64,000 nucleotides of DNA, from IMG/VR virus record IMGVR_UViG_2622736468_000003; one strand, given 5' to 3'. This document shows, piece by piece, positions 15,146 through 60,527 of the stretch. The first letter of the stretch is position 1. Every line of letters begins with the position of its first letter. The DNA is from a virus. Lineage: Duplodnaviria > Heunggongvirae > Uroviricota > Caudoviricetes. The translations under genes were made by a program, and so were the position numbers. The notes beneath the pieces were generated by a model. That model had not been told where the DNA came from, ran no database searches, and saw nothing but the letters and a program-made list of their open reading frames with translations.

Positions 15146-15817
15146 ATGACAACTCAAGTTTCTGTTGAAACACTCTCCACGATTACTTACAAGCAGATCC
15201 CCGTTATCACTACCGAACTTTTGGCGCACCTTTACGGCACAGAAGCTATTCGTATTCGCCAGAATCACCACGAAAACAAAGGTCGTTTCATTGAGGAAAA
15301 ACACTTCTTCAAACTTGAAGGTGAAACTTTACGTGAGTTCAAGCACAGAGTAGCTTTTAACTACTCTGTGAAAATTGCCCGTAACGTTCGCTCCCTCATC
15401 CTATGGACAGAACGCGGCGCAGCCCGTCACGCAAAAATGCTCGAAACTGATCAGGCGTGGGAGGTATTCGAAAAACTGGAAGACTGCTATTTCAGCCAGG
15501 GAAAAACAGCACCAACCGAACAGCAGCCGCAGATTCAGCCACAATTCACAGCCGAAGAAATCATCCTCCTTTGCTACATGCAGCTCTGGATGGAAAAAGC
15601 CCAGGACCTCAGCAAACACCTGTATCCCATTATGAAAGAGCTGAACTCCTCATACACGAACAAGCTGTATGACATTGCGTTTGAGACCATCTACATGGTG
15701 ACGAAGAACAGAGACGCGCTACTAAGGGAGGTAACACGTCTCGACATGTCAAGTTCCATTATCCAGCGGGCCATGCCAATGCTGAAAAGCCTGCGGGCAA
15801 GACAATTTGAATTCTGA
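15146..15817 (+). CDS. antirepressor-like regulatory protein (ORF6N-type N-domain + shared KilA-C-like C-domain)
   Basis: 223 aa; C-terminal ~95 aa near-identical to the C-terminus of ORF 59898..60527. Confidence 0.55.
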   Translation: MTTQVSVETLSTITYKQIPVITTELLAHLYGTEAIRIRQNHHENKGRFIEEKHFFKLEGETLREFKHRVAFNYSVKIARNVRSLILWTERGAARHAKMLETDQAWEVFEKLEDCYFSQGKTAPTEQQPQIQPQFTAEEIILLCYMQLWMEKAQDLSKHLYPIMKELNSSYTNKLYDIAFETIYMVTKNRDALLREVTRLDMSSSIIQRAMPMLKSLRARQFEF

Positions 15818-15821
15818 AACT

Positions 15822-15847
15822 AAAGGAGCTTCGGCTCCTTTTTTGTT
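15822..15847 (+). terminator. rho-independent terminator
   Basis: GGAGCttcgGCTCC followed by TTTTTT; same hairpin in inverted orientation at ~59872..59895. Confidence 0.6.
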
Positions 15848-15871
15848 GGGAAAATCCAGTGAGAGGGAATA

Positions 15872-16282
15872 ATGAACCAGACTATCTTCCTCCGAAGTAA
15901 GCAGCAGCAACAATTTGCCATTAACGCCATCCTTGCAACAACTCTCGATAAAGACAAACCCGTTACGATCCGCATCACCGATTACAAGCGGAATCTCGAT
16001 CAAAATGCCAAATTTCACGCGATGGTCGCTGATATCTCCCGACAGGTTCAGTGGTGCGGCAGATGGCTAAAACCAGAACAGTGGAAAGTTTGGTTAATCA
16101 GCGGTCATGCCGTGGCTACAAAACAGGAAGCTGATGTTTTGCCAGGTCTTGAAGGTGAATACGTCAATATCCGCGAAAGCAGTGCGCAGATGAGCGTGAA
16201 GCGTATGGCAAGCCTGATTGAGTACACAACTTCCTGGGCTGTGGAGCAGGGTGTCAGATTTACCGACAGGAGGTATGAATGA
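15872..16282 (+). CDS. ninB: NinB (Orf-family recombination protein)
   Basis: 136 aa; recalled similarity to lambda NinB; nin-region synteny. Confidence 0.7.
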
Positions 16283-16470
16283 GACGACAGCGACGAAGCA
16301 TTACCGATATAGTCTGTGAAAACTGCAATTACCTTCCAACGAAACGCTCCCGAAATAAACCCAGGCCAATCCCCAACGAATCTGATGTAAAAACCTTCAA
16401 TTATACGTCTCACCTGTGGGATGTCCGGTGGCTCAGACGTCGTGCAAGATTTAATAGTCACTCCGGATAG
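16279..16470 (+). CDS. ninE: NinE
   Basis: [27 protein letters not shown]... close to lambda NinE as recalled. Confidence 0.7.
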
Positions 16471-16490
16471 TTCAATGTACGAGGAATAAG

Positions 16491-16784
16491 ATGATGGCAA
16501 ACCTACGCAAAGAAGCGCGTGGCAGAGAATGTCAGGTACGGATTTACGGCGTATGCAATGGCAATCCTGAAACTACAGTTTTGGCGCATTACCGAATAGC
16601 TGGAATTTGCGGAACGGGAATGAAGCCAGATGACCTGTTGGCTGCATGGGCCTGTAGTGACTGCCATAATGAAATCGATCGCCGTACTCGCATTCTCGAC
16701 AACAACGACGCCAGACTTTACCACCTGGAAGGCGTGATCAGGACGCAGGCGATATTGCTGAAGGAGGGGAAGATTAAGTCATGA
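16491..16784 (+). CDS. DUF1364 (YbcO-like) protein
   Basis: RGRECQVRIYGVCNGNPETTVLAH...CSDCHNEIDRRT pattern. Confidence 0.6.
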   Translation: MMANLRKEARGRECQVRIYGVCNGNPETTVLAHYRIAGICGTGMKPDDLLAAWACSDCHNEIDRRTRILDNNDARLYHLEGVIRTQAILLKEGKIKS

Positions 16785-17143
16785 ATGAATATGAGTTTGT
16801 GCTTCCCTGGCCGCCGACGGTGAATACCTACTGGCGAAGACGGGGAAGCCAGTACTACATCAGCGATAAAGGCCAGAAATACCGAAAAGACGTACAGCAA
16901 ATCATCCGGCAACTCAGATTAGACATTTTCACTAAATCACGACTTCGCATCACAATTATTGCTGAACCACCAGATTCCCGCCGTCGCGACCTCGATAACA
17001 TCCTGAAAGGTTTACTCGACTCTCTTATCCACGCCGGATTTGCGGAAGACGACGAGCAATTCGATGACATTCGCGTAATTCGTGGCGTGAAAGTACCAGG
17101 CGGAAGGCTTGGAATAAAAATCACCGAACTGGAGAACATTTGA
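16781..17143 (+). CDS. rusA: RusA Holliday-junction resolvase
   Basis: LPWPP...RRRDLDN...GGRLGIKI pattern. Confidence 0.75.
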   Translation: MNEYEFVLPWPPTVNTYWRRRGSQYYISDKGQKYRKDVQQIIRQLRLDIFTKSRLRITIIAEPPDSRRRDLDNILKGLLDSLIHAGFAEDDEQFDDIRVIRGVKVPGGRLGIKITELENI

Positions 17144-17337
17144 TGAATGCTAAAATTCAAACGATACCTGAATTACTGATCTGCACCAGGGGAAATCAGA
17201 CAGAAGTCGCCAGAATACTGAACTGCAATCGTGCCACAGTCAGAAAATACATTGATGATAAAGATGCGAAAAAGCACGCCGTCGTCAATGGCGTCCTTAT
17301 GGTTCATCGCGGATGGGGTAAAGATACTGATGCGTGA
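17140..17337 (+). CDS. ninH: NinH
   Basis: [25 protein letters not shown]...VLMVHRGW. Confidence 0.7.
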
Positions 17338-17710
17338 TATCCGGCAGGTTCTTGAGCGCTGGGGGGCATGGGCGGCAAATAACTATGAGGATGTTACATG
17401 GTCGCCCATTGCTGCCGGATTTAAGAGGCTGATCCCCGAAAAAGTAAAATCACGTCCACAGTGTTGTGACGATGACGCGATGATTATATGCGGGTGCATG
17501 GCTCGCCTTAACAGGAACAACAGCGATCTGCATGACTTGCTGGTGGATTACTACGTGTTGGGGGAGACGTTCATGGCGCTGGCCCGTAAGCATGGATGCT
17601 CTGATGGAACTATCGGTAAAAAATTACAGAAAGCGGAGGGCGTGGTTGAAGGGATGTTAATGTTACTTGGTGTCAGACTGGAAATGGACCGATATGCGCA
17701 ACGCCTCTGA
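17330..17710 (+). CDS. Q: Q late-gene antiterminator
   Basis: ATG overlaps ninH stop; 126 aa with [16 protein letters not shown] zinc-binding segment; last gene of the nin region. Confidence 0.7.
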
Positions 17711-17841
17711 CAGGAGGCGTTTGCCGTTCACTATGTGAAGTGTGTCAATTTGTGAGCGTTATGCTGTTTACTTTATAGTACAGGGACGTAAGAGTTATCT
17801 ACCTGTTAATAACATATATACAACAATGAACAGGGGGCAAA

Positions 17842-18435
17842 ATGGACATTGAAGATTTTCTGGAGGCGGAAGACAATGATCTGTCTCTGTGGAATGATGA
17901 TATTTTAAGCATTGACTGGTTCGTTATCCTCAAAGAGCTTTTGAAATACCAGAACAGGTTAAAGTTAAACTATTCAGAATTACTTCTGCTGGCTAATTTT
18001 GTTTCATTTCACCAGGACGTAGATTCGCAAACATTACCATCAATATCTCTTTTTGCCACCAGAATGCGTGCATCTCGTGCCATTATAGAAGAAGGCTTTC
18101 AACGCCTGGAGGAGAAAGGGATGTTGCAGAAGATAAGTTATGCTCAAATCGGTCATGATTATGATTTGCGGAACGTTTATGACATCAAGCCATTAATTCG
18201 TAAGTTAATTGAGGTGCTGAAAACCGAGTATGATAAAAAGCACACTTGCCCCCTCTGCGGCAAAATAGCTGTCTCTGATGAGGAAATTGAGAAAAAATTC
18301 GGATTCAGAATTTGCGGGAATAAGAAAAGGCCGCAAAGCTGGTGCCGTTCATGCAGAAGCACGAAACAACGCAGACTGAATTCATCGCTAATTGGCAAAA
18401 AAAAGCCCCGAAAATCTCCGCCCGAGGTGGTGTGA
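17842..18435 (+). CDS. hypothetical protein with winged-helix-like N-part and C-terminal CxxC...CxxC zinc ribbon, in the stx/moron slot
   Basis: 197 aa; visibly AT-rich; CPLCGK...CRSCRS. Confidence 0.55.
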   Translation: MDIEDFLEAEDNDLSLWNDDILSIDWFVILKELLKYQNRLKLNYSELLLLANFVSFHQDVDSQTLPSISLFATRMRASRAIIEEGFQRLEEKGMLQKISYAQIGHDYDLRNVYDIKPLIRKLIEVLKTEYDKKHTCPLCGKIAVSDEEIEKKFGFRICGNKKRPQSWCRSCRSTKQRRLNSSLIGKKKPRKSPPEVV

Positions 18436-18548
18436 AGCGTCGCGGAACCCCGGATTCCACTCACGATTGAACGAGGTGCTAAAAAGTATTTTACGTACGT
18501 AAAAATCTGCATATCATGATAAGAGTGGTTACATTGCCACGCTGCTTA

Positions 18549-18572
18549 ACCCGCCGATGCGCGGGTTTTTTT
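18549..18572 (+). terminator. rho-independent terminator (tR'-like position)
   Basis: CCCGCcgatgcGCGGG followed by TTTTTTT. Confidence 0.55.
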
Positions 18573-18752
18573 GTACCCAGAATCCTGTGAGCTATACGGA
18601 AAGTACACAGAAAGGAAGGTACGACCGCAATTAATAACAAAATCTTAAAAATCTCATATGGCACTATTAGTTTTCTAAATATTGTATATTTTAAGTATTG
18701 CAGGATAACCCTGTAACGAAGTTTGCGTAACAGCATTTTGCTCTACGAGTTT

Positions 18753-18782
18753 GCCAGCCTCCCCTGGTGGCTGGCTTTTTTT
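18753..18782 (+). terminator. rho-independent terminator
   Basis: GCCAGCCtcccctggtGGCTGGC followed by TTTTTTT. Confidence 0.6.
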
Positions 18783-19267
18783 GTATCCGTTCAACGGGAA
18801 TGTTACATACCTCACAATTAAGTCAGTTGAATGTTGTCTGCCCGGATGAGAATTTGTTAGAAAAAACTGCATGGTGAATCCCCCTGAGCGGAGGGGCGAC
18901 TGGTGACGGTATAATCTCTGATTATCAAAACGAGAATGACGCGGGTTTAGTGGCACCGGGCTGAACTCACCGGGAGGCACCCGGCACCATGCAATGGCAC
19001 ATAGCGCCACTCTCCAGCCCCTCTCCGGAGGGGCTTTCTTATGGACAAAAAAGCCCGCGCTGGGAGACGCGGGCGGCAAGGAATAAACAATGAAACGTGA
19101 AGTAATATTTCAGCTGGCGAATAATACCCCATAGTAATCACTCTGCGCAACTGCGCGACCTTTTTCGAATTGCGGGCTGTAGTCTCCCTTCTGCCATTGT
19201 CCTGTAACTTCCGGACTTCAGCCCGCTCCTTATTTTACTCACAATATTATCCCGGCCGGGAGGATTC

Positions 19268-20831: not shown

Positions 20832-20885
20832 TGAACCGCCCCGGGAATCCTGGAGACTAAACTTCCTGAGAAAGAGGTAAACAGG

Positions 20886-21212
20886 ATGACTAAAAATACT
20901 CGTTTTTCCCCCGAAGTCCGTCAACGGGCAGTCCGTATGGTTCTGGAAAGTCAGAGCGAATATGACTCACAATGGGCGACAATTTGTTCCATTGCTCCAA
21001 AGATTGGCTGTACGCCGGAGACTCTGCGTGTCTGGGTTCGCCAGCATGAGCGGGATACCGGGGGCGGTGATGGAGGGCTCACCACCGCTGAACGTCAGCG
21101 TCTGAAAGAGCTGGAGCGTGAAAATCGTGAACTGCGCCGCAGTAACGATATCCTTCGCCAGGCTTCCGCTTATTTTGCGAAGGCGGAGTTCGACCGCCTC
21201 TGGAAAAAATGA
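20886..21212 (+). CDS. IS629 OrfA
   Basis: 108-aa HTH/leucine-zipper ORF typical of IS3-family orfA. Confidence 0.8.
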
Positions 21213-22099
21213 TGCCACTGCTGGATAAGCTGCGTGAGCAGTACGGGGTCGGACCGCTATGCAGCGAACTGCATATTGCCCCGTCAACGTATTACCACTG
21301 TCAGCAACAGCGACATCATCCGGATAAACGCAGTGCCCGTGCGCAGCGCGATGACTGGCTGAAGAAAGAGATACAGCGCGTATACGATGAAAATCACAAG
21401 GTATACGGTGTGCGTAAAGTCTGGCGTCAGTTGTTACGGGAAGGTATCAGAGTGGCCAGATGCACTGTGGCACGTCTCATGGCGGTTATGGGACTTGCCG
21501 GTGTTCTCCGGGGTAAAAAGGTCCGTACGACCATCAGCCGGAAAGCCGTTGCCGCAGGCGACCGCGTAAACCGTCAGTTCGTGGCAGAACGACCTGACCA
21601 GCTGTGGGTGGCTGATTTTACTTACGTCAGCACATGGCAGGGCTTCGTCTATGTGGCGTTCATCATTGATGTGTTTGCCGGATACATCGTGGGGTGGCGG
21701 GTCTCATCGTCCATGGAAACGACATTCGTGCTGGATGCACTGGAGCAGGCGTTATGGGCCCGTCGACCGTCCGGCACGGTCCATCACAGTGATAAAGGTT
21801 CTCAGTATGTATCGCTGGCCTACACACAGCGGCTTAAGGAAGCCGGATTACTGGCATCAACAGGAAGTACAGGCGACTCGTATGACAACGCGATGGCGGA
21901 GAGCATCAATGGTCTTTACAAAGCGGAGGTAATACACCGTAAGAGCTGGAAAAACCGGACAGAAGTGGAGCTGGCCACACTCACGTGGGTGGACTGGTAT
22001 AACAATCGACGATTGCTGGAAAGGCTGGGCCATACTCCTCCGGCAGAAGCAGAAAAAGCTTATTATGCTTCCATCGGAAACGATGATCTGGCAGCCTGA
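21209..22099 (+). CDS. IS629 OrfB (DDE transposase)
   Basis: 296 aa; overlaps orfA as in IS3-family elements. Confidence 0.8.
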
Positions 22100-26070: not shown

Positions 26071-26107
26071 GTAAGCGTGCAGCAAGAACCGTATTGACGG
26101 GGATGTG

Positions 26108-27646
26108 TTATTCAGTCGGCAGTGCTACGCGCCAGGGGAGCAGTTCGCCGACCCGGTTTATCGGCCAGTCGGCTATGACGTCAAGGACATAGCGGAGGTA
26201 GCTTTCTGGCTCCACTCCGTTCAGTTTGCACGTCCCGATCAGGCTGTACAGCAGCGCTCCCCGCTCTCCTCCATGATCCGAACCGAAGAACAGGTAGTTT
26301 TTGCGGCCCAGACTGACCATCCGCAACGCATTTTCAGCGATGTTATTGTCCGCCTCAGCCCAGCCATCATCTGCATAGTACGTCAGCGCCGGCCACTGGT
26401 TCAGGGCGTATGCGAACGCTTTCGCCAGTTCTGAGTGTCGCGACAGGGTTTTCATCTTTTCACGCAGCCAGCTTTCCAGGGATTTCAGCAGCGGTTTCGT
26501 TTTCAACTGACGTTCGGCAAGGCGCTGTTCCGCCGTCATTCCCCTTATCTCTGCCTCGATGGCGTACAGTTCGCCGATCCGTTTCAGCGCTTCCTCCGTC
26601 AGGGCTGACGGGGTGCGAACGTGCACATCGTGGATTTTACGGCGGGCGTGAGCCCAACAGGCGGCTTCCGTTATCCGGCCATCCCGGTACAGCTCGTTGA
26701 ACCCGGCGTATGCATCCGCCTGCAGTACACCACTGAACCCCGCAAGATGGGTCTGCGGATGGATGCCTTTTCTGTCCGGGCTGTAAGCGAACCACACCGC
26801 CGGCGCCAGCGTTGACCCGGCGTTACGGTCGTCACGAACATACGCCCACAACCGCCCGGTCTTCGTTTTCTTATTGCCTGGCAACAGCACCGGGACAGGC
26901 GTGTCATCAACATGGAGCTTACCGTCAGTCAGCACATAGCCATGAAGCGCCTCTTCCAGCGGAGACAGCAGCCGGCAGCATGCATCCACCCAGCCCGACA
27001 GCAGTGAACGGCTCAGCTCCACACCTTGCCGGCCGTATATTTCTGACTGGCGATACAGCGGGGTGTGCTCTGCATACTTCGAGGTCAGCACGCGGGCCAG
27101 CAGCCCCGGTCCGGCGATACCCCGCTCGATGGGCCGCGAAGGTGCAGGTGCCTGCACGATGGCATCGCACTGAGTACAGGCATGTTTTTCCCGTACCGTC
27201 CGGATAACCCGGAAGGCGCTACGCATCAACTCCAGCTGTTCGGCGGTATCCTCGCCCAGATAACTCAGTGAACCGCCGCAGTTCGGGCAGCACGGCGCCG
27301 CAGGCAACAGTCGCTTTTCGTCACGGGGTAGTGATTCAGGGAACGGCTTACGGGTGCGGGTCTGACGCAACGGACGCTGTACTGCCGGGTCATACACCCT
27401 ACCAGTCAGCGTATCGCTCTCTTTCTGAAGCCGGTTCAGATCGGCTTCCATTTGTGCGATACGGCGGGAGACTTTTTCGGAACGACTGCCGAAGTTCATC
27501 CGGCGGAGTTTATCCAGCTGCGCCTGCAGATGGTCTATTTCGCGCTCCCGGTTGCTCAGCTTTTCCTGCAGGGCGTGGATCAGCGCTTCCTGTTCGGCCA
27601 GGCGCTGTTTCAGCAGGAAGATGTCGTCAGAAGAGATGTCGTTCAT
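26108..27646 (-). CDS. IS66 transposase TnpC (intact, 512 aa)
   Basis: single ORF spanning both frames of the copy-1 fragments. Confidence 0.8.
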
Positions 27647-27695
27647 AAGCCCGTATTTTACCGGGCTTATTCTGTGACAACCAGGATAAAGAGAT

Positions 27696-28043
27696 TTACA
27701 GCATGGTCAGGGAGGTCAGCAGCCGCTTAGGCTGTCGCCAGTCGATACCTTCCAGCAGCATCGCCAGCTGCGCCTGTGTAAGGAACACTTTGCCATCACG
27801 GGCTGACGGCCAGGCGAAGCGCCCACGCTCCAGCCGTTTGGTCAGGAGGCACAGTCCGTCACCGGTGGACCACAGCAGTTTAACCTGACTGCCGCTGCGG
27901 CCCCGGAAAATGAAAACATGGCCGGACATGGGATCGTCTTTCAGCGCCGTCTGTACTTTCGCAGCCAGGCCGTTGAAGCCATTTCTCATATCGGTGATAC
28001 CGGCAACCAGCCAAATTTTGGTCCCGGAAGGTAACGGGATCAT
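27696..28043 (-). CDS. IS66 Orf2 (TnpB-like)
   Basis: identical to 3545..3892. Confidence 0.8.
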
Positions 28044-36888: not shown

Positions 36889-38978
36889 GTGTTGTTGTTT
36901 CGGGGACGCTGAAATCTCCTGATGGTGAGGCGATATCAGGAGCAAATATTACCCTGACGGCGCTGACAGTTTCACCGGATGCGCTCAGCGGCACCAGTGC
37001 GTCGGCAGTGACCCGTGAAGGTGGATATTACGGAATGACGATGGATCCGGGGGAGTATGCGGTTTCGGTGACGGTGAAAGGGAAGACTGCTGTCTACGGA
37101 CGTGTGCGTATTGAGGGGACCGAAAGTACGGTGACGCTCAATATGCTGTTACGCCGCAGTCTTGTTGAGGTGAGCATACCCGGAGAACTGCTGACAGATT
37201 TCCGGCAGATACAGAATAATGTGGCTGATGACCTTGCCACTATTCGTCGCCTGAATGAAGACACGGCGACAAAAAACACTCAGGCCACACAGTCAAAAGA
37301 CAGTGCAGCAGCCAGTGCGAAGAGTGCATCTGACAGTGCAAAGACGGCAACCAGCAGGGCGGCTGAAGCCGGACAAAAAGCCAGTGAAGCTGCAGAAGCA
37401 GCGACCCGGGCATGCGAGTCTGAAAAGGCCGCGGCAGCAGACGCGAATGATGCCAGACAACATGCTGAAACCGCCAGAGTGGCTCATGAGGCCGCCGGAG
37501 ACGTTCTTAAACGTGCTGAGGCTGCTACGGTTAGTGCTGAAGAGGCCAGGCGTATGGCAGAGAATGCCAGAGGCCCTAAAGGTGATACCGGACCGAAAGG
37601 TGATGCAGGCCCTCGTGGAGAAACAGGTCCACAAGGCGCACAAGGACCACGCGGTGAAACAGGACCGGTGGGGCCGCAAGGAGAGCGGGGGATTCAGGGG
37701 CCTGCTGGTCCACGAGGTGAAACCGGGGCCAGAGGTGAAAAAGGAGACCCCGGAGACCCGGGGGACCACCCGGGCCGAAAGGTGATGCGGGACCTAAAGG
37801 TGACACCGGACCAGCCGGTCCCGCAGGTGAAAAAGGTGAGCCGGGAGAACGAGGGTCTCAGGGAGAGCAGGGGCTACGCGGACCTGCAGGAGAGAGAGGC
37901 CCGGCGGGGCCGCAGGGACCGAAAGGAGATGCCGGTGCGACAGGTCCGGCAGGTCCGAAAGGTGAACGAGGCGAAGCTGGGCCTCAGGGCCCCCGCGGGG
38001 AGCCTGGTCCGGCGGGCAGCGCAGCAAATGTGGTGGACGCGACGACGGCACAGAAGGGAATTGTGCAGCTAAGTAGTGATACTGCCAGTAATGACGAAAC
38101 AAAGGCTGCCACGTCGAAGGCTGTGAAGGCGGCAATGGATGAGGCCAAGGCGGCGAGACAGAAGGCAGAAGAGGTTGCTGCAGGTGGTGGCGTTCCCAGC
38201 CCGAAGGGAGACAAGGGCGATACGGGTCCGGCAGGCCCACAGGGACCGAAAGGGGATACGGGAGCCGCAGGCCCGGCAGGCGCACAGGGGCCAAAAGGTG
38301 ACAAAGGCGATCCGGGGGTGGCTGGACCAGCAGGCCCGGCAGGCGCACAGGGGCCAAAAGGTGACAAAGGCGATCCGGGGGTGGCTGGACCAGCAGGCCC
38401 GGCAGGCGCACAGGGGCCAAAAGGTGACAAAGGCGATCCGGGGGTGGCTGGACCAGCAGGTCCGGCAGGTGCGCCGGGGCGAAAGGCGATAAAGGTGATC
38501 CGGGAGTAGCTGGACCAGCAGGTCCGGCGGGGCCACAGGGACCGAAGGGAGACACTGGAGCCCCGGGCAAGGAACAGAACTGCTTACTACTGCCAATACA
38601 TGGACTCAGGCACAAACTTTTAATGGTGGTATTAATGGCAATTTGACGGTGACCGGAAACGGCTCATTTAACGATGTTCAGATCCGTTCGGATAAACGCA
38701 ACAAGCGAAATCTGGTAAAACTGGATAATGCGTTAGATCGTCTGGAGGCACTTACTGGTTATCTTTACGAGATACAGTACTCTGCCGACGGTTGGCAAAC
38801 GTCGGTTGGTTTAATTGCTCAGGATGCACAAAAAGCATTGCCTGAACTGGTAACTGAAGACGCAGACGTTATATCTGGTGAAAAACGTCTGCGTCTTAAC
38901 TACAACGGCATAATTGCATTGTTAGTCGAGGGCTTTAAAACACTTCGTCATGAGATTAAAGAACTCCGGGAGAAGTAA
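36885..38978 (+). pseudogene. tail fibre with collagen-like Gly-X-Y repeats and C-terminal S74-type intramolecular chaperone domain; three -1 frame disruptions
   Basis: frames 36885..~37765, ~37765..38509 and ~38565..38978 each carry part of one protein; breaks at G5 (37760..37764), G4 (38474..38477) and C4 (38561..38564) runs; C-terminus SDKRNKRNLVKLDNALDRLEALTGY. Confidence 0.6.
38268..38456 (+). repeat. 63-bp perfect tandem repeat x3 inside the collagen-like region
   Basis: GGCCCGGCAGGCGCACAGGGGCCAAAAGGTGACAAAGGCGATCCGGGGGTGGCTGGACCAGCA repeated three times, encoding [21 protein letters not shown]. Confidence 0.85.
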
Positions 38979-54500: not shown

Positions 54501-56861
54501 CGTGTGCGTAACAGCGGCAAACAGGCACAGTATGACCGTCTGGCAGGGATTATTGACGATATGCTGGCCCGTCGCCGTGAGATTATCCGTGAGGCAGGAC
54601 TGGAAGAGAGCGGCGTGGTGGATGCCTGGCAGAAAGCCTACCGTTACTACGTCCCCCTGAAAGGGCAGGATGTTGACGGTGTGGTGTCACAGCCACGTAC
54701 AGGCAAGGGATTCACCATCGGCGGGCGTGAAAGTAAGCAGGCCATGGGGCGTGCATCCCGCGCACAGTCTCCTTCCACTCAGGCGATACAGGATTTGAGT
54801 GAATCGCTGATCCGCAATCGCAAAAATGAAGTGGGTAACGCCTTCCTGAAACTGGTACAGGATAATCCCGACAAGGATTACTGGCAGGTATTCACTGATG
54901 ACAGACCGGATACAATGCGTGTGATTGCAGAGCGCAAGGACCAGGAAACTGGTGAAACCATTCGCGAAGTTGTCGAGCGCCCTGTGCCGATGGCAATGAT
55001 GGCGGATCGCTACTTCACCACCAAAAAGGACGGCAAAACTTACTACATTAAACTTCATGATCCGCGCCTGATGCGTGCGATGAAGAACATGGGGCCGGAA
55101 ACCAGTAACGCCGTAATCCGTACGCTGGGGAAAGTTAACCGCTTCCTGGCAACGGTGAACACGTCGTATAACCCGGAATTTCTGGTCAGTAACTTCATCC
55201 GTGACGTGCAGACTGCGGTGATGAACCTGAAGGCTGAGCAGGGAAGAAGCGACGGCAAACTGAAAGGGCTGGATAACTTATCCGCGCTGGCTGTGGTGAA
55301 AGACAGCCGTTCCGCCATGTCAGCCGTATACGCAAGTCTGCGGGGTAAAACCCTCACGGGCAAAGGCGCACAGTGGCAGAAAGTGTGGAAAGAGTTTGTT
55401 GAGGACGGAGGTAAAACCGGCTGGTTTAACATGGGGGACCTTGAAGGCCAGCAGAAGGAAATGGATCGCCTTGTGTCGCTGGCGAAGGGCGGATGGAAAG
55501 GCCAGAGTATCGGTGCATGGCATTCGTTCCTGAACCTGGTCGAGGATGCCAACGGCGCGGTTGAAAACGCTCTGCGTCTTTCTGCCTATAAACACGCCCG
55601 TGATGCCGGTTTGTCACGCCAGCAGGCGGCATCTCTTGCCAAAAACATGACGGTGAACTTTAACCGTCGTGGTGAGCAGGGAGCGCTGATGAACTCGCTG
55701 TATATGTTTGCCAACGCCAGCATTCAGGGGACCGCAAACCTGGTGAGAACGCTCGGACATCTTAATGGCGACGGGCCGTTACTGGAGCGCCTTCGCTGGA
55801 AGAATCTCAATGTACCGCAGAAAATCGCGCTTGCAGCTGTGGGAGCGGGTTATCTGCTTGGCTCGCTTAACCGCAGTGTGGCGGGTGAGGATGATGACGG
55901 GGTTAACTGGTACGACAAGGTGCCGTATCATGTGAAAGAGCGTAACCTCGTCATTATGAAATCGATGTTCGGGGGCAGGGCCGGAGAGTACTGGAGTATT
56001 CCTCTGCCTTACGGGTACAACGTTTTCTTCCTGCTCGGGCATACCTCTGAAGGTGTGGCTGCTGGTGACCTGACGGCGTCCCGTGCTGCCGGTAATGTTG
56101 TCGGTGGTATCCTGGGGGCATTCAGCCCGATTGGCAGTGAGACGTCGGAAACGCTGTCCGGGGCATTGCTGAAAAATGCAGCACCGACAATTCTGCGTCC
56201 GTTTGCGAATCTTGCCATGAACGAAAACTTCATGGGGGCGCAGATTTACCAGGAGAACATGCCGTTTGGTACACCAAAACCTGACAGCCAGCTGGGAAGA
56301 CGTTCAACGCCAGAAGCGTACAAGGCGTTTGCATTCTGGCTGAATGCGTTCTCAGGTGGCAGCCAGTATCGTCCCGGCGCGGTGGATATCACACCGGAAT
56401 CGCTGAAATTCTGGATTGACTATATCTCCGGAGGGACAGGGCGCTTCATTTCCAAAACCACGGATGCGGCGGTGAAATCGCTGAATGGTATTGATATACC
56501 GGAACAGCAGGTGCCCTTCCTGGGGAAAATTTCGGGTGAGGTGATGCCGTATGCAGACCAGCAGAAGATGTACGACCGGATGACAGAGGTTGCGCAGTAT
56601 CACGCAGAGCTGAAGAGTCTGACCGGTGCAGAAAGAACGGCGTTCATTGACGAGAACAACGGAAAATTGTTGATGAACGGGCTTATGCAGGATACCCGGA
56701 AGAGACTGAAGGATTTGCGCAAACAGCGCGATGCCATTTATGCCGACAGTTCTCTCAGTCTGGCGCAGCAGGCGGCGATGGTGAAATCGGTAGAGCGGGA
56801 TATGAAGGTTGCCGTGGATCGCTTTAACCGCGAGTACAACAAAAAAGTGGGAGTGGATTAA
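48510..56861 (+). CDS. giant (2783-aa) putative virion/ejection protein with two HExxH metallopeptidase-like motifs
   Basis: single uninterrupted ORF of 8.35 kb; motifs ALAHEWFHSLD and LRHEIIHHAMEH; last gene of the late block. Confidence 0.6.
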   Translation: MAYSDEQRPEAQFGNQSRNSLNIQQPGETDSYDVFFSDPNRWKDNSTSFSLGDVLPTMGKGVAQSVRGTGEMARGLGDAMIQSPVKTGARILNEFSRMGLPGVATVQDIFVGGSKGADEVIDTLPDGKNAVTDTVGKGLKVTGKAVSGGAKASDEWLTGKMSPGAQRALNTPMTEGYDDSAVWVAKGVNLIGALVPDMVAGGVTKKLGDVTLRKVLTAGLEKKYIAAGMQPERATALAAEAVDKKMPDFFQAGLITHSTVSAQGRSAMAAADAVLNADYSELAKSPKFQQTFLSIDADPQHAQLTDRQKMDLAKERVADEVRAQLATDPELLAVNAMAAKLGDAQLLNLAMRGTAKTVKSGIVRNATEQGTINAAQGGYLRYQENTALRETAGMDVSPWEGVADATIEGAALGAAMGAPFGAAAGYRGKRQAADEAAMREAESVPQDESAPQPEPVDPVAQHRESMQGMNREQLLEQYADADMAHEGDTSAVHRREAASQLLNELDEQAKRQAVMDELKAKPRPELLEEYRKLSQKEGRTDTEEQQLQAIRDVLRPQREARPEAQPQPENADDGDGSIYPTVRFRDPDEVRIEINESGASRPAERIEKVRPDNRYFTDEKSALGSDVFRNASATGLKPSVVKKGENQYAVEMDNPAFSEDVATETINTLADGERITDADPMEQPAFMRDPRFRGFTGDDTEVQARLARGNAPTAEELVRSQMAEGDAGPTAQELTERPRLPAPGDIHPGQGYPLPGEVARTPDENQAGRGGRFTTTGEVKGQSFQKGRAQAPENAAGRQGEILEGETVRRGLPSPDEQNATAPVREGLPAPESQRGVDMPQPESLPRMVRDSLPELAQQAEARRQTGDNRQTITDVPDTEVPVPVDKPSTHQQARGAKIEDFGEEIKGAAKHRYAQLAEAMGKTLEDGEYATQPLSKLFPKPDYARLEKEGVDSDTLAMMALYRSEIPTRTSRNMQKWISIVKSGREATAGMLEGKIPAAKLADMMDSKPGLRSMSDTWKLLRTLSALQIDKASGYRVRSGVYSFVGGKRYDPPQMMYSLRDSKGRDLFFSESRDELLKKAKAYFDEQGSRERETPATSADDRITFDVYRHKASGDIFIGYGKNRQKLKGGFESARDAHDYVRTHRDELVNQVKALREVSREEQRNATNRDRTGPERRKGDVSPEQFSDAFGFRGVQFGNYVESPRRQADLNRAYDSLHDLADVLNVPTKALSLNGRLGLAFGARGKGKAAAHYEPGEVAINLTKGNGPGALAHEWFHSLDNYFGRYDVSTDGKITSGGDYMTEAQRAGRVFKDGRYVDAEYPVRQEVYDAFKGVMKAINSSDMLRRSERLDGVRSKPYWSTDVEMAARAFERYVQDKARMAGVENDYLVNIRKADDHGQPDTYAYPTNAELDGGIREAFDHLFRTLKTRETDKGVAFYSRKGVTRTPEGNLISDVNRSAEAKGSPVPQVEAVARGVISGIKDSDLKVRVVKSQKEAEALAGESFDGYGKVHAFYRPDKREIVLVADNIPDGRTVREKLRHEIIHHAMEHVVTPAEYQTIIKTVLKTRDSDNATIREAWRKVDASYGKESPEVQAGEFLAHMAEKQPIKFVAAWERVVALVKGVLRRTGLLKPTELNDIRLVRETIRTLGQRVREGYTPREDGADASSQYSRSGKPDPFKVPEGEGERYRDDLARMMKSLRSTDLTVNIGRTPPVLRHLGAPDLPLVISRDTVRKATNGVKHVVPMDVIERLPELMHDPDAIYRSATERNAVVMLLDAVDKNGDPVVSAVHMKAVRSRLEINKVASVYGTENGKKLKSMEMTGLTLYRREKLSRDNLLHRGLQLPKGEHSYRGSVDKILYPEDIRKGPYYSRTSSLTPEETIASRFVRQMQDKFQVLKAVQENIRKTGGKIDDSNNAYMAEELFHGKAENDLNVMKERYVQPLAKLLADYKIAQADLDEYLYARHAPERNAHIAKINPKMPDGGSGMTNAEAAEIMQRVRNSGKQAQYDRLAGIIDDMLARRREIIREAGLEESGVVDAWQKAYRYYVPLKGQDVDGVVSQPRTGKGFTIGGRESKQAMGRASRAQSPSTQAIQDLSESLIRNRKNEVGNAFLKLVQDNPDKDYWQVFTDDRPDTMRVIAERKDQETGETIREVVERPVPMAMMADRYFTTKKDGKTYYIKLHDPRLMRAMKNMGPETSNAVIRTLGKVNRFLATVNTSYNPEFLVSNFIRDVQTAVMNLKAEQGRSDGKLKGLDNLSALAVVKDSRSAMSAVYASLRGKTLTGKGAQWQKVWKEFVEDGGKTGWFNMGDLEGQQKEMDRLVSLAKGGWKGQSIGAWHSFLNLVEDANGAVENALRLSAYKHARDAGLSRQQAASLAKNMTVNFNRRGEQGALMNSLYMFANASIQGTANLVRTLGHLNGDGPLLERLRWKNLNVPQKIALAAVGAGYLLGSLNRSVAGEDDDGVNWYDKVPYHVKERNLVIMKSMFGGRAGEYWSIPLPYGYNVFFLLGHTSEGVAAGDLTASRAAGNVVGGILGAFSPIGSETSETLSGALLKNAAPTILRPFANLAMNENFMGAQIYQENMPFGTPKPDSQLGRRSTPEAYKAFAFWLNAFSGGSQYRPGAVDITPESLKFWIDYISGGTGRFISKTTDAAVKSLNGIDIPEQQVPFLGKISGEVMPYADQQKMYDRMTEVAQYHAELKSLTGAERTAFIDENNGKLLMNGLMQDTRKRLKDLRKQRDAIYADSSLSLAQQAAMVKSVERDMKVAVDRFNREYNKKVGVD

Positions 56862-56984
56862 CAGAAATGGCCCCGTACGGAAGTGCGGGGCTGATTAAGA
56901 GATAAACACACATTAACCTGTAATAACCGGAGCTATTAACATATAGTCAGAAAGAGTATTTCATGTGAGACAGAGAGCCGATTT

Positions 56985-57176
56985 ATGTTTAATGAAGAAA
57001 AAGTTGCGCAAATGGCAGCGTATTTGCTGAAAAAGCATGGCGGATCTATGCGTTTCATTAAGCTGATGAAGCTGATGTATCTCTCTGACCGCAAAGCAAT
57101 GGAGTCTTTAACCGGGAAGGGGAGAGGTTTGAATGCTCCCCCACAATTCCCCGGCATCAAATCTCCATGCAGGTGA
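56985..57176 (+). pseudogene. N-terminal remnant of a DUF4065 (Panacea-domain)-like gene
   Basis: MFNEEKVAQMAAYLLKKHGGSMRFIKLMKLMYLSDR resembles the N-terminus of that family as recalled; truncated at 63 codons. Confidence 0.3.
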
Positions 57177-57262
57177 ACTATTTTACCCCCAGCGGCAAAT
57201 CGCAAAAACAATCAGTGCGATCGAAATGGCAGCCACTACAATTGCAAATGCTTCAGGCTAGG

Positions 57263-58207
57263 TCATTGGCGTACCTCCTTCGGCGGTTCTGGTAGCGGCA
57301 TCCAGTGGGTTACTTCTTTGAGATGCAGGTCTTCGCCATCACCGTCATCCCAAGTGGGATTGCCATCATTAAACCAGTCGCCATATACGCCGACCTGAGT
57401 GTTGGGGATGCTTGGTGGGTAGTTGTTTTTAAAGTCAGCTGCTAACACATAGTATTGTCGCTCTCCCATTTCTGGCATTCGATCACTACAGCTTATCCAA
57501 CCATCCGGAGTTACCGGAACTGGCGGAACGGCTGTTTGCTCTCGAACGTCATTAGTCGCTATCGGTTCTGCTGCCAACTGACTGGCATATTTGTTAATGG
57601 TAACGATAAGCTCTTGCTCAGCCTCATCCAGACAATCACCGATACCTCGCCTGTCACCGTCAAAATCATCGAAATCGGCACGAATCCTGGCAACCTTCAG
57701 GATTGCGGACAACACCTCACTAGGAATTGCCGGATAGTTGGTTGACGTTTCCGCGATTTCCCGAAAATTATTGGTTGACGAATTCTTGTTTTCCCGAAAG
57801 TTTCCGGACTGAAGCATGGCGGCGCGGCAGGCGTTCCATATTTCGGCAGCAATATCGCGCTCGCTATCGGTTAATTTGTACGTGGAAACATAGCCAGAGA
57901 GCATTTCTACGTTTTCCGGAGTTGCTTCTTCCGGCACTACCGGCGCTGGAGGGGCGGCGTAAATGCCCTCTATCACTAAATGTTTGCGCTCAAAATCATC
58001 TGGCTCTCGATGATATACGTAACTCCAATCACCAAGGTTATCATTGCGCCTGCAACGGAAACCTATCGGCTCGGCTTCCAGCGCTGCCAGAGCAATTCGT
58101 GCCAGTTCTTCCGCTTCTTCTGCTGGCAGTACAACGTTGCTACCAGGTCCGTATGTTTCGCGCCACTGCTGGATTGTCAGCAGGCGTTCTTTGGTAATAG
58201 TGGTCAT
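57263..58207 (-). CDS. DUF551-like phage protein (paralog of 11971..12555)
   Basis: shares GNFRENKNSSTNNFREIAETSTN and DGWISCSDRMP...WMPLPEPPKEVRQ modules. Confidence 0.55.
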   Translation of the reverse strand: MTTITKERLLTIQQWRETYGPGSNVVLPAEEAEELARIALAALEAEPIGFRCRRNDNLGDWSYVYHREPDDFERKHLVIEGIYAAPPAPVVPEEATPENVEMLSGYVSTYKLTDSERDIAAEIWNACRAAMLQSGNFRENKNSSTNNFREIAETSTNYPAIPSEVLSAILKVARIRADFDDFDGDRRGIGDCLDEAEQELIVTINKYASQLAAEPIATNDVREQTAVPPVPVTPDGWISCSDRMPEMGERQYYVLAADFKNNYPPSIPNTQVGVYGDWFNDGNPTWDDGDGEDLHLKEVTHWMPLPEPPKEVRQ

Positions 58208-58209
58208 AG

Positions 58210-58401
58210 CTATTTCACCTTAATCTCAACATTTCGCAGCTTTAGCTCTACTGGCAGGTCTGACTTTCCGGTTAATGCTAATGCGAGATTTTCTGGAGTA
58301 ATGAGAGCAGTTATTGTTTTCCCCCTCGCCAGACGAATAATCATTCGTATCTCGCAATCGTCACATGCTCCCGGTCGAACAATTGAGATTTGTCCGTCCA
58401 T
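58210..58401 (-). CDS. hypothetical protein
   Basis: track ORF, 63 aa, tightly packed in the leftward operon. Confidence 0.4.
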   Translation of the reverse strand: MDGQISIVRPGACDDCEIRMIIRLARGKTITALITPENLALALTGKSDLPVELKLRNVEIKVK

Positions 58402-58402
58402 C

Positions 58403-59011
58403 TCACTCTCCTTTGATGCGAATGCCAGCGTCAGACATCATATGCAGATACTCAACTGCATCCTGAACCCATTGACCGCCAATCCCGTAATAGCGATGCG
58501 TAATGATGTCGATAGTTACTAACGGGTCTTGTTCGATTAACTTCCGCAGAAACTCTTCCAGGTCACCAGTGCAGTGCTTGATGACAGGAGTTTTCCCAGG
58601 ATGGCGAACAACAAGAAACTGATTTCCGACTTCACGGACTTCGTTGCTTTCCAGTTCTGCAATGCGCTTCTCTGCGGCTTCCAGCTCAACTCTCAGCTTC
58701 CCTACTGTTAGCGCAATATCCTCGTTCTCCTGGTCGCGTGATTTGATGTATTGCTGGTTTCTTTCCCGTTCATCCAGCAGTTTCTGCACTAATTTAGGGT
58801 TGAAAGCTGCGATAAATTCTGCGTTGTTCTCTGCATTTTTCTGGTCGTCAAAGCCAGGCCATTTGATAATGTCTCCGCAACGTTCATCCCCCGGCGTATG
58901 CACCGCATATGTACCAGTGTCCGGCGAGATGAATGCACGCCATTCGCCCTGTGTTGCCTGTTGCGCTATCTTACGTAAGGTAGCTAATTGTTCGCTGGTA
59001 AAAGTCATCAT
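58403..59011 (-). CDS. Ea22/Ead-like protein
   Basis: ATQGEW...NAEFIAAFNP...LLDERERN pattern; start taken at the ATG overlapping the upstream stop. Confidence 0.45.
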   Translation of the reverse strand: MMTFTSEQLATLRKIAQQATQGEWRAFISPDTGTYAVHTPGDERCGDIIKWPGFDDQKNAENNAEFIAAFNPKLVQKLLDERERNQQYIKSRDQENEDIALTVGKLRVELEAAEKRIAELESNEVREVGNQFLVVRHPGKTPVIKHCTGDLEEFLRKLIEQDPLVTIDIITHRYYGIGGQWVQDAVEYLHMMSDAGIRIKGE

Positions 59012-59361
59012 GGTTGCATCTCCCGTTCTTCTGCCCACTTCCGAAGCCCTTCAATCTCACCATTACGAGCTATCAGCTCGCGACACAGTCTTTCGTTTTC
59101 ATCCAGTAGTGCCAGCACAGTAGCCGGATTGGCTGCGGCGATGAATTCAGCATTGGCCTGCTGTTCCATTTGGAAATCTTCATCGAAACCGCTTTCAGGA
59201 TGTGCTCCTTCAATTCTGCAAATGGGAATATATCCAGCAGCCTCGCGATGAATTAGTGCATCATCACCATCAAATCGGTTCTCTCCATATTCGAGCGACC
59301 ACTCACCACGCGTTGCTTTTTCTGCCTTTTCACGCAGTACCTGATAGTTAATCTCGCTCAT
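59008..59361 (-). CDS. Ea22/Ead-like protein (paralog)
   Basis: ATRGEW...NAEFIAAANP...LLDENERL pattern. Confidence 0.45.
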   Translation of the reverse strand: MSEINYQVLREKAEKATRGEWSLEYGENRFDGDDALIHREAAGYIPICRIEGAHPESGFDEDFQMEQQANAEFIAAANPATVLALLDENERLCRELIARNGEIEGLRKWAEEREMQP

Positions 59362-59632
59362 TTTTCTCTTCGCTCCGGTATACAAGAATTACAACGTCAC
59401 CTCTGCTAATTACGCGAGCTGGACCTCCTGGCTCCATGCTGTCAATCCCGAAGGCTTCGGAAAACGCATTCATTGCCTTCTGGCGTTGATCCTGCTTACG
59501 GCATTTATTCCATTTTTTCAGTAACAACAGCGATAGCCACCGCCCGGCGCAGAACATAATGTAAAAATAACCAAGAAGCGCCAGACCTGTGTTGAGGGCC
59601 GTATCGATCGTTATAGTGGTGTCTATGCTCAC
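59348..59632 (-). CDS. hypothetical membrane protein
   Basis: track ORF with hydrophobic N-terminal half. Confidence 0.4.
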   Translation of the reverse strand: MSIDTTITIDTALNTGLALLGYFYIMFCAGRWLSLLLLKKWNKCRKQDQRQKAMNAFSEAFGIDSMEPGGPARVISRGDVVILVYRSEEKNERD

Positions 59633-59850
59633 TTCACACCTCTCTGTTTGTTGATAAGTTCAATATCCTGCTGGCAACTGGCGCAAGCTCGGCATCCACG
59701 AACAGCCAGGCGTCGCCGCTCATCTATCGGATCGCCACACTCGCAACAATGAGTAGCAGATGGGGCATTACTATCGGATTTGTATTTTTGCAGGGAGAGA
59801 TTGCGCTGCAATTCTTCGATTTCAGCGGCATTGTCGATGATATCTGCCAT
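59629..59850 (-). CDS. TraR/DksA-family C4 zinc-finger protein
   Basis: CCECG...x17...CRACASC. Confidence 0.6.
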   Translation of the reverse strand: MADIIDNAAEIEELQRNLSLQKYKSDSNAPSATHCCECGDPIDERRRLAVRGCRACASCQQDIELINKQRGVK

Positions 59851-59871
59851 TTTCCTTTCCTTCAGGCATGA

Positions 59872-59895
59872 AAAAAGGAGCCGAAGCTCCTTTAG
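59872..59895 (-). terminator. rho-independent terminator (inverted copy of the 15822..15847 hairpin)
   Basis: GGAGCttcgGCTCC with T-run on the minus strand. Confidence 0.55.
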
Positions 59896-59897
59896 TT

Positions 59898-60527
59898 TCA
59901 GAATTCGAATTGCCTTGCCCGCAGGCTTTTCAGCATTGGCATGGCTCGTTGGATAACGGAACTTGACATGTCGAGACGTGTTACTTCCCTCAGTAACGCA
60001 TCTCTGTTCTTCGTCACCATGTAGATGGTCTCAAACGCAATGTCATACAGCTTGTTCGTGTATGAGGAGTTCAGCTCTTTCATGATGGGATACAGGTGTT
60101 TGCTGAGGTCCTGGGCTTTTTCCATCCAGAGCTGCATGTAGCAAAGGAGGATGATTTCCTCGGCTGTGAATTGCGGCTGTGGTTCTGCTTGTACTGGCTG
60201 AATGTTGCGAAGTTTCTTTTCGCACTCGATGAAGTAGCGGCGGATCTGGCGACCTTTTTCGTTACGTTCAACCATCGCAAGCTCTTTGGCTGTGTCGAGG
60301 GTGAGGTGGTATTCCTTGCGGCGGCGGCCTGGAGTTTTCGCCAAATTTGGCGAAAATAGAATGTAGTCTAAATTTTCTACGAATCCATACTCGTTTAGCC
60401 TGGCCCGTATCCAGTTAGAAAAATCTTTACCTACCTCTAAAAATCCATGCAAATCACGCGCGTTCACCAGAAGCGTAGGTTCATTTGAGATTGTACCTTC
60501 AAACACAGGGATGAGTTGAGTGGTCAT
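59898..60527 (-). CDS. antirepressor (AntA-type N-domain + KilA-C-like C-domain)
   Basis: GGAGG RBS; N-domain ...LVNARDLHGFLEV...YHLTLDTAKELAMVERNEKGRQIRRYFIECE; C-terminal ~95 aa shared with 15146..15817. Confidence 0.6.
   Translation of the reverse strand: MTTQLIPVFEGTISNEPTLLVNARDLHGFLEVGKDFSNWIRARLNEYGFVENLDYILFSPNLAKTPGRRRKEYHLTLDTAKELAMVERNEKGRQIRRYFIECEKKLRNIQPVQAEPQPQFTAEEIILLCYMQLWMEKAQDLSKHLYPIMKELNSSYTNKLYDIAFETIYMVTKNRDALLREVTRLDMSSSVIQRAMPMLKSLRARQFEF

Follow-up and report, generated by a model that had tools for sequence, protein, structure and literature searches.

How does a single prophage come to carry, about 44 kb apart and in opposite orientation, two nearly identical copies of the end of an antirepressor-type gene? 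We addressed this question in a stretch of 64,000 nucleotides of virus DNA (Caudoviricetes; IMG/VR record IMGVR_UViG_2622736468_000003), hereafter the window. A preliminary description of this DNA had offered two readings, domain shuffling between two antirepressor lineages and a homology substrate that allows inversion of the intervening 44 kb. In our analysis, the repeat is best explained, with a probability of roughly 80%, as a 3' module shared by two independent cassettes of antirepressor type ('Bro network') in one 933W-like prophage and exchanged by recombination.

A repeat search recovered an ungapped inverted repeat of 309 nt, whose arms are 96% complementary and spaced by 44,026 nt, and base-by-base comparison gave 297/309 identical positions. 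The near-identical antirepressor C-terminal module plus terminator, first judged by eye, was thereby confirmed, with ends that had been drawn slightly generously (~15847 and ~60190, against the measured 15844 and 60179). The BLASTN E-value of the match was ~1e-145, which excludes chance. All 12 mismatches are transitions: 11 are silent at the protein level, and the remaining one replaces I by V. The two longest stretches of unbroken identity measure 83 and 74 nt, and the 27 non-coding bases past the stop codon, hairpin included, do not differ between the arms. The repeat comprises the last 93 codons (the P22AR_C domain), the stop codon and a UUCG-hairpin/T6 terminator. Similarity stops abruptly on one side at a Q/P-rich linker ahead of the P22AR_C domain and on the other right after the terminator T-tract, that is, at a domain boundary and at a terminator end. 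At the protein level, the last 101 residues of the two antirepressor-type proteins are 93% identical, and P22_AR_C (PF10548) was recognized in both (31.4 bits on the left and 29.5 on the right; gathering cut-off 22.4). The N-domains, already described as unrelated, belong to different Pfam families, ORF6N (71 bits, left) and AntA (92.3 bits, right). The coordinates are collected in Table 1; the right hairpin was found by folding both arms, as the pattern scan missed it when the maximal stem took in part of the T-tract.

Table 1 Features of the two antirepressor-type cassettes and of the repeat that they share, in window coordinates.
Feature	Position	Strand	Basis
Sigma-70-like promoter, left cassette (TTGACA-18-TATATT)	14869..14898	+	Consensus scan 11/12; pattern match only
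c4-a1b1 target element, overlapping the isrK-type leader	14892-14945	+	RF03163, 44 bits, just under the gathering score of 46.7
isrK-type leader RNA	14905..14982	+	Rfam RF01394, 69.2 bits (gathering score 50)
C4-type antisense/immunity RNA	15008..15092	+	Rfam RF01695, 66 bits (gathering score 45)
Left antirepressor-type gene (ORF6N + P22AR_C, 223 aa), followed by ninB	15146..15817	+	Pfam
Left arm of inverted repeat (93 codons, stop codon, terminator)	15536..15844	+	Repeat search and base comparison
Intrinsic terminator, left (GGAGC-UUCG-GCUCC hairpin + T6)	15822..15847	+	Terminator scan; fold -13.7 kcal/mol, z-score -2.9
Intrinsic terminator, right (sequence as left copy)	59868..59893	-	Fold -14.2 kcal/mol, z-score -3.6
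Right arm of inverted repeat	59871..60179	-	Repeat search and base comparison
Right antirepressor-type gene (AntA + P22AR_C, 209 aa)	59898..60527	-	Pfam
sRNA-Xcc1-type leader RNA of AntA cassette	60568..60653	-	Rfam RF02221, 73.4 bits (gathering score 53)
Sigma-70-like promoter of AntA cassette (TTGACG-18-TATACT)	60770..60799	-	Consensus scan 10/12
Truncated antA' (AntA domain only, 95 aa)	60777..61064	-	Pfam AntA, 92.6 bits
Second sRNA-Xcc1-type leader RNA, for antA'	61105..61193	-	Rfam RF02221, 69.1 bits (gathering score 53)
Promoter-like site, antA' leader	61283-61312	-	Promoter scan 10/12

The left gene lies in the nin region, upstream of ninB-Q, and is 100% identical to the O104:H4 gene WP_000211990.1. 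Its C4 RNA is flanked by a repeated target motif: GATTAGGAACC occurs exactly twice in the window (0.03 expected), upstream of the RNA at 14928 and downstream at 15094-15104, the latter ~40 nt ahead of the left ant start codon, and the complement GUUCCUAA is present within the C4 RNA sequence. In the immI operon of P1/P7, a c4 antisense RNA controls icd-ant. A search of small plus-strand ORFs upstream of the left ant found no icd-type coupled ORF, the sole two (14984-15070 and 15012-15095) stopping at least 50 nt before the ATG at 15146, and the ORF search of the same region found no orf45-like ORF with a stop overlapping the ant start (AUGA). The right gene is organized along similar lines with other parts. 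Its terminator is followed by a traR/dksA-like gene (59629-59850), the two sRNA-Xcc1 matches lie directly upstream of the AntA and antA' ORFs, and the AntA cassette promoter overlaps the 3' end of antA', which is annotated as a partial pseudogene in relatives and is the remnant of an upstream cassette in an array. The leader and N-domain of the right gene are 98.5-99.6% identical to those of strain S19-651, whose C-module is a different allele.

Both genes reside in one 933W-like lambdoid E. coli prophage inserted in ynfG. The right gene occupies the equivalent of the lambda 'b-region': it lies between the tail genes and attP, and in the circular phage it comes next downstream of int, on the far side of attP, and is transcribed in the same direction. 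The circular record AP005153.1 presents int, an annotated att site and AntB-like, TraR-like, DUF4752 and Ea22 genes all on the same strand, and phage PhiR5_2 has a matching layout together with the same 309-nt repeat at 90.9% identity. The inverted orientation of the shared module in the prophage, with 44 kb between the copies, follows from this placement of the nin and b cassettes on opposite strands. One could instead suppose that a second, decayed prophage adjoining the first carries the right arm, and that the repeat arises from the juxtaposition of two related phages; the block reading leftward (DUF551, ead, DUF4752, traR, ant, antA') does meet a truncated ynfG with no integrase beside it. 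However, the two ynfG halves enclose the entire element, from intD to the Ant gene, and the complete phages PhiR5_2, 933W, VT2-Sakai, the PA series and AP005153.1 carry this block at the genome end, next to att/int. These two observations rule out a tandem or adjacent second prophage and leave that origin a negligible probability. A single large mirrored duplication was also discarded. The DUF551 paralogs, noted earlier as similarly arranged, are real (Pfam; patchy 78-94% nucleotide similarity), but they do not form one mirrored arrangement with ant, since along the plus strand DUF551 precedes ant at both places.

In related prophages, the nin and b loci hold variable tandem arrays of one to three cassettes with ORF6N, AntA or BRO N-domains. 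The terminator always closes the last cassette of the array, the next gene being ninB or traR. In the window, each cassette is preceded by a leader RNA scoring above its Rfam gathering threshold. Across the related prophages, one and the same 309-nt module, with unchanged edges on both sides, follows N-domains of the ORF6N, AntA and BRO types at the two loci, as expected of the module-exchange boundary proposed in the preliminary description. The module is carried by roughly 190 genomes, and we surveyed its alleles in ~19 copies from 11 genomes or phages. Two allele families, A and B, were both found at the nin and b loci, and the sub-clades A1 and A2 each include copies from both, indicating that the module moved repeatedly between nin and b. 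Domain shuffling between two antirepressor lineages was therefore upheld, by a module with three N-domain types and by sub-alleles that are not sorted by locus. Alignment revealed a central allelic patch of ~210 nt between flanks common to all alleles. Outside this patch the window's right gene matches the right genes of O104:H4 and S19-651, and inside it matches its own left gene. The right arm also has ~6 private substitutions, about half of the arm differences; as a result, neither an A1/A2 mosaic nor a fresh conversion from the left arm was supported as its origin.

The arms might also be kept alike by ongoing gene conversion within the genome (concerted evolution), for instance if the two proteins needed an identical C-domain to form mixed oligomers or to meet one partner. 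The nin and b copies of JNE120442 agree with each other at 97-98%, compared with only about 91-92% against the window's copies at the corresponding loci, in S19-651 the B-type modules at nin (in a BRO gene) and b are 97% identical, and the presence of both loci within A1 and within A2 points the same way. On the other hand, within-genome arm identity across relatives ranges from about 70% to 98%, and the alleles at the two loci differ in O104:H4 (about 70%) and 2013C-3033 (86-87%), so that matching alleles are not required. In addition, the window's right arm, with its private substitutions, is 96% identical both to its own left arm and to the b copies of other strains, and exchange between different co-resident prophages would yield the same pattern. 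Taken together, we consider concerted evolution a rather doubtful account of the likeness.

The other half of the original proposal was that the repeat serves as a working homology substrate, at which RecA or phage Red would occasionally or regularly invert the 44-kb ninB-Q-lysis-morphogenesis-b segment to give two isomers. Several features make this conceivable. The repeat measures 309 nt, and its arms agree at 96% and share unbroken stretches of 83 and 74 nt, which is above the minimal efficient processing segment of E. coli recombination; exo, bet and gam adjoin int in the relatives viewed, and both proteins would stay intact after a crossover inside the repeat. We built the recombinant junctions in silico (J1, ORF6N-N + repeat + traR; J2, AntA-N + repeat + ninB) and searched for them at a minimum of 80% query coverage at one place. 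Neither was contiguous in any of 5,426 complete E. coli genomes or 50,697 phage records. Matches to J2 at 76% coverage did not represent inversions; they stem from ORF6N genes that share the Xcc1-type leader and continue into the module and ninB. At least five genomes or phages inspected directly (the window, 23CRST047, JNE120442, 2013C-3033 and PhiR5_2) have both arms in the parental arrangement. The gene order implies that inversion would separate ninB...Q from pR and thereby close the usual path to late-gene activation in an induced prophage. With active mismatch repair, the 4% divergence between the arms would lower the recombination rate further. Moreover, the same prophage holds an inverted IS66 pair of 2.44 kb and ~100% identity, a far better substrate, and yet the segment between its copies is in canonical order. 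Thus the inversion part of the proposal was not supported, and a regularly or occasionally flipping segment is very improbable, though rare, transient inversion within a cell population might occur.

A rare flip isomer would nevertheless have consequences. It would place ninB...Q and the late operon downstream of int-attP-AntA, Q would be reached only via the N-antiterminated leftward (pL) transcript of the excised, circular genome, and late-gene expression, including the toxin in Stx relatives, would need prior excision. In a milder version, a two-input, one-output induction device, the differently regulated cassettes would keep matching C-domains and their products would act through one common, immunity-independent partner. 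We judge the two jointly, and give them only a very slim chance.

We also asked whether the C-module tracks immunity. The left arm recurs without change, in O104:H4 together with the rest of the gene, alongside three essentially unrelated cI repressors, and no co-variation of the C-module with cI was seen, which makes it unlikely that the C-domain is an immunity-specific repressor-binding surface. Judging from these sequences, the name 'antirepressor' may mislead for both genes; in phi24B, deletion of an ant gene had no effect on superinfection (PMC3064807). A sequence search for relatives of known structure gave no relevant match (best E-value 0.81).

In the cassette-exchange explanation that we prefer, each cassette is a compact, self-contained unit of a predicted promoter, a leader/immunity RNA, a variable N-domain and a P22AR_C C-domain, with a strong intrinsic terminator predicted to close the last one of an array. 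The left cassette belongs to the early transcript that runs rightward from pR, and it lies shortly before ninB...Q. Short segments that are universally conserved, namely the ~70 nt that open the C-domain, the terminal ~50 nt including the terminator, and the leaders, may serve as sites of homologous recombination or gene conversion, which would account for the near-identity of the DNA. In repeated exchanges of this kind, the module or an entire cassette would pass from one locus to the other and from phage to phage; the exchange could have occurred between co-resident phages and not within one genome. Purifying selection would hold the protein unchanged, and we count the 11/12 synonymous differences between the arms as support for a shared module. 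The same C-terminal output domain may be fed by two inputs under separate control, a C4/isrK leader of the P1-immI type and leaders of the Xcc1 type, and the repeat would have no programmed role in DNA inversion.

The locus offers a clean DNA-level case of lambdoid and Stx-type phages rebuilding regulators from interchangeable parts (leader RNA, N-domain, and C-domain with terminator), with cassettes traded between two sites, one in the nin region and one in the b region near att. For annotation, two such 'antirepressors' are to be read as paralogous cassettes of one phage, not as two prophages or an invertible segment, and the occurrence of the same module with unrelated repressors calls for caution in assigning function by name. 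Its importance is modest, and it opens no new mechanism.

Several known systems resemble parts of this arrangement. The Gin/Hin/Cin invertible segments and shufflons share its geometry only, inverted repeats bracketing DNA; here the repeats are ~300-nt coding modules, not short crossover sites, a single orientation occurs in databases, and no invertase is annotated in the stretches of related prophages viewed, which lie to either side of the middle ~18 kb (terminase to tail). The right-end 'antirepressor' genes of Stx phages (933W L0142, VT2-Sakai, Min27, the PA series), with which the phi24B ant gene (PMC3064807) is grouped, are counterparts of the right-arm gene: each is a single minus-strand copy close to the end of its genome and matches the 309-nt module at 90.3% identity. 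Unlike the window, most of these phages have a single A-type copy and hence no inverted repeat. The P1/P7 immI operon (PMC7313666) resembles the left cassette, in which a C4-family RNA is flanked by two target motifs that sit upstream in a1b1/isrK and just before the ant ribosome-binding region. The left cassette differs in lacking an icd-like coupled ORF, in its ant architecture, and in belonging to a lambdoid nin region, not a plasmid prophage. The Gifsy-1 module isrK-orf45-anrP, next to antQ (PMC4825925), shares with the left cassette an isrK-family RNA that carries its own terminator and immediately precedes an antirepressor-like gene, in the region ahead of Q. In the left cassette, however, the place of an orf45-like ORF between isrK and ant is taken by a C4-family RNA. 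The closest parallel is the 'Bro network' of domain-swapping phage regulators, a known kind to which the shared C-module belongs and not a new mechanism: P22AR_C is common to two proteins with different N-domains (ORF6N and AntA), BRO-type versions occupy the same loci in relatives, and C4/isrK-type RNAs are encoded alongside. What distinguishes the present case is that the shuffling is seen at the DNA level (91-98% identity) within a single phage genome, with sharp edges, a terminator within the module, and inverted copies at two defined loci, nin and b.

A genuine inverted repeat is present, and its limits are sharp. When the two arms were compared base by base, 297 of 309 positions were identical without a gap, the longest perfect runs were 83 and 74 nt, and in a wider alignment the similarity ended abruptly on both sides; a BLASTN E-value of ~1e-145 excludes a chance match. 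All 12 differences are transitions, ten at third positions, one a synonymous first-position change in Leu and one replacing Ile with Val, and the 27 non-coding bases 3' of the stop codon do not differ at all. The arms form the 3' ends of the ORF6N gene (left) and the AntA gene (right), and the two proteins are 93% identical over their last 101 residues and unrelated N-terminal to that, with different N-domains in Pfam. The near-identical C-termini and unrelated N-domains noted in the preliminary description are therefore confirmed, and we conclude that the repeat represents a module of C-domain and terminator that two antirepressor-type cassettes of one phage have in common.

Coordinates of the repeat arms and other features of the window
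Feature	Position (strand)	Remarks
Ser/Thr protein kinase gene, eukaryote-like	2175-3011 (-)	Pfam Pkinase, 118 bits
IS66-family, left copy	3076-6098	inverted pair with right copy, 2.44 kb, ~100% identical
cI	7177-7884 (-)	LexA-like (S24) repressor
sok antitoxin RNA	12852-13026	beside a hok gene; Rfam, above gathering score
isrK	14905-14982	5' of ORF6N gene; Rfam
C4 antisense RNA	15008-15092	5' of ORF6N gene; Rfam
ORF6N gene	15146-15817 (+)	Pfam ORF6N + P22_AR_C
Left arm	15536-15844 (+)	repeat finder: 309 nt, 96% complementary to right arm (opposite strand), 44,026 nt between
Q	17231-17710	
STnc100 sRNA	18841-19046	downstream of Q; Rfam, above gathering score
ALIL pseudoknot	21167-21283	Rfam, above gathering score
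IS66-family, right copy	26071-28512	flanks 26070/28513
Collagen-like (Gly-X-Y) array, long	37570-38576	in tail-fibre-region ORF (36885-38072 and following); periodicities 63 nt and 9 nt (repeat finder, families D1-D5)
Right arm	59871-60179 (-)	
AntA gene	59898-60527 (-)	Pfam AntA + P22_AR_C
sRNA-Xcc1	60568-60653	5' of AntA gene; Rfam
antA' (truncated, AntA only)	60777-61064 (-)	upstream of AntA gene
sRNA-Xcc1, second	61105-61193	5' of antA'; Rfam
17-pair hairpin	61437-61398 (-)	between host genes and antirepressor cassettes

Every cassette in the window has phage regulatory RNAs on its 5' side, all above the Rfam gathering score, and a sigma-70-like promoter match lies ahead of each leader. 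Both arms are closed by an identical GGAGC-UUCG-GCUCC hairpin with T6, a predicted terminator (-13.7 and -14.2 kcal/mol). Taken together, these elements indicate that each gene is a compact cassette of promoter, leader RNA, variable N-domain, P22AR_C and terminator. The junction of the truncated antA' with the next cassette, ...ATGGTTGA|CG..., coincides exactly with the start of the -35 hexamer (TTGACG) in the AntA cassette promoter (window 60268-61076). Other strains (L005, L006, L011, L012) have the same succession of truncated N-domain, leader and full gene with ORF6N in their nin regions, which suggests that cassettes are repeatedly stacked or deleted in this way.

The entire stretch is a single prophage inserted in ynfG, as follows from the fully annotated copy of the same element in E. 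coli O104:H4 2011C-3493, which has parts of ynfG at both sides. There, dmsD, ynfH, a reconstituted ynfG and intD(-) are followed by exo/bet/gam, cI, cro, cII, O and P, then by DUF551, hok, doc, the ORF6N gene, ninB...Q and the late genes. After a giant LPD38 protein comes a leftward block (DUF551, ead/Ea22, DUF4752, TraR/DksA and Ant), and beyond Ant an 84-bp ynfG fragment and ynfF, the chromosomal gene with which the window ends on the right. That the leftward block is part of the phage is borne out by complete phage genomes: PhiR5_2 has int at its start and two antirepressor genes at its end, and the circular record AP005153.1 carries int, an annotated attachment site, AntB-like, TraR-like, DUF4752 and Ea22 genes on one strand. 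By this gene order the right arm lies directly downstream of int across attP, in what corresponds to the b region of lambda (b locus). The left arm belongs to the nin region and is carried on the rightward early transcript, just ahead of ninB and Q. The b-locus cassettes are directly downstream of ynfF and the ynfG fragment on the same strand (window 61065-61700 (-)), so transcripts of the host ynfEFGH operon could extend into them; the hairpin in between may be att-related or a barrier.

Related prophages carry one to three cassettes at both loci, for example ORF6N' + ORF6N (+ BRO) ahead of ninB, and antA' + Ant (+ BRO) or AntA + BRO ahead of traR. The hairpin terminator is always on the last cassette of an array, with ninB (nin locus) or traR (b locus) after it, and internal cassettes lead straight into the promoter and leader of the next one. 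We compared ~19 module copies from 11 genomes or phages. The module falls into two allele families, A and B, which are ~67% identical to each other and have the first ~70 nt and last ~50 nt in common. Both families, and likewise the A1 and A2 sub-clades (90-92% identical), are found at both loci, and identity between the arms within one genome varies from ~70% (O104:H4) through 86-87% (2013C-3033), 90.9% over the same 309-nt extent (phage PhiR5_2) and 96% (window) to 97% (23CRST047) and 97-98% (JNE120442). We infer from this distribution that the module has been transferred between the nin and b loci more than once, presumably by recombination in the conserved flanking segments. The right gene of the window is practically identical to those of O104:H4 and S19-651 in leader, N-domain and the segments shared by A and B, whereas its central ~210 nt are the A allele, as in its own left gene, against B in the other two. 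As the right arm has about six private transitions, no very recent conversion is visible in this genome. Both the domain shuffling and the module-exchange boundary proposed earlier are thus supported by the comparison with related prophages: the module occurs with different N-domains, its alleles have been exchanged between loci, and the sharply edged repeat is a genuine module boundary. Homologous exchange at conserved cassette segments would maintain and redistribute the module, a well-documented kind of phage mosaicism that appears here in a tidy two-locus version. Among 5,426 complete E. coli genomes, 193 carry the A-type module, at 279 places in all. It is also found in 49 phage records, 933W (L0142), VT2-Sakai, Min27 and the PA series among them, and most of these have the b-locus copy only.

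The preliminary description alternatively regarded the arms as a substrate for inversion of the intervening 44 kb, a reading that is unlikely here, though inversion may occur as a rare, transient event. We built both inversion junctions in silico (1,581 nt each), J1 joining the ORF6N N-part and repeat to the traR side and J2 the AntA N-part and repeat to the ninB side. Neither the 5,426 genomes nor 50,697 phage records had a place that covered at least 80% of J1 or of J2, and the top matches covered 60%, as parental loci should. Thirteen J2 matches at 76% coverage were rejected as inversions: they consist of an Xcc1-type leader and ORF6N gene, then the module and ninB, which shows that different cassette types have leaders in common. 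Judged from gene order, inversion would uncouple ninB...Q from pR and leave an induced prophage without normal late-gene switch-on, so inverted isomers would not persist. As a substrate for inversion, the IS66 pair in the same prophage is far superior to the 309-nt repeat, and the DNA between its copies is still in canonical order. Hence the sequences searched give no evidence that the repeat is an inversion switch, and exchange of a shared module remains the preferred reading.

The IS66 pair encloses cI...Q...lysis and the left arm. In its left copy a 1-bp deletion near 4481 shifts the tnpC frame; this copy is directly followed by a 582-nt inverted partial copy, giving this composite IRL-type ends on both sides, with the 8-bp direct repeat GGTTAGTG at the flanks. 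The adjoining kinase gene, which we take to be a relative of 933W stk, is without its N-terminal part, which the insertion seems to have cut off. The right copy lacks a target-site duplication and lies ~97 nt into a gene of 816 nt that is annotated as 'terminase' in NMBU-W12E19 and presumably encodes the small subunit. The remaining ~720 nt are missing and the large terminase gene begins 16 nt past the IS, so that this prophage can probably not package DNA. ALIL is an IS3-family frameshift element, so the pseudoknot would point to a third insertion sequence within ORFs 20886-22099.

Since an identical or 99.7% identical left arm stands alongside three essentially unrelated cI genes (window, O104:H4 and NMBU-W12E19), the C-domain is unlikely to be an immunity-specific repressor-binding surface, and a putative role in general output or in oligomerisation is more plausible. 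A sequence search found no match to the protein among solved structures. The three prophages share the ynfG site and near-identical nin and late regions, and the essentially unrelated LexA-like (S24) repressors in them are a clear case of immunity-region replacement.

Domain-swapping regulators of this kind form a 'Bro network', often alongside C4/isrK immunity RNAs (PMC10111431), and in APSE phages sRNA-Xcc1 lies upstream of an ORF6N gene (PMC7313666). The Gifsy-1 relative AnrP increases antQ expression (PMC4825925), and deletion of an ant gene of phi24B left superinfection unaffected, the authors of that study proposing promotion of efficient induction instead (PMC3064807). Upstream of the left ant gene we found neither an icd-type (P1) nor an orf45-type (Gifsy-1, PMC4825925) small coupled ORF. 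The left-leader motif GATTAGGAACC is present at just two places in the entire window (0.03 expected), within isrK/a1b1 and 40 nt ahead of the ant start codon, and its complement is present within the C4 sequence. A target motif present twice with its complement in C4 is the same logic as that of the P1 immI c4-ant system.
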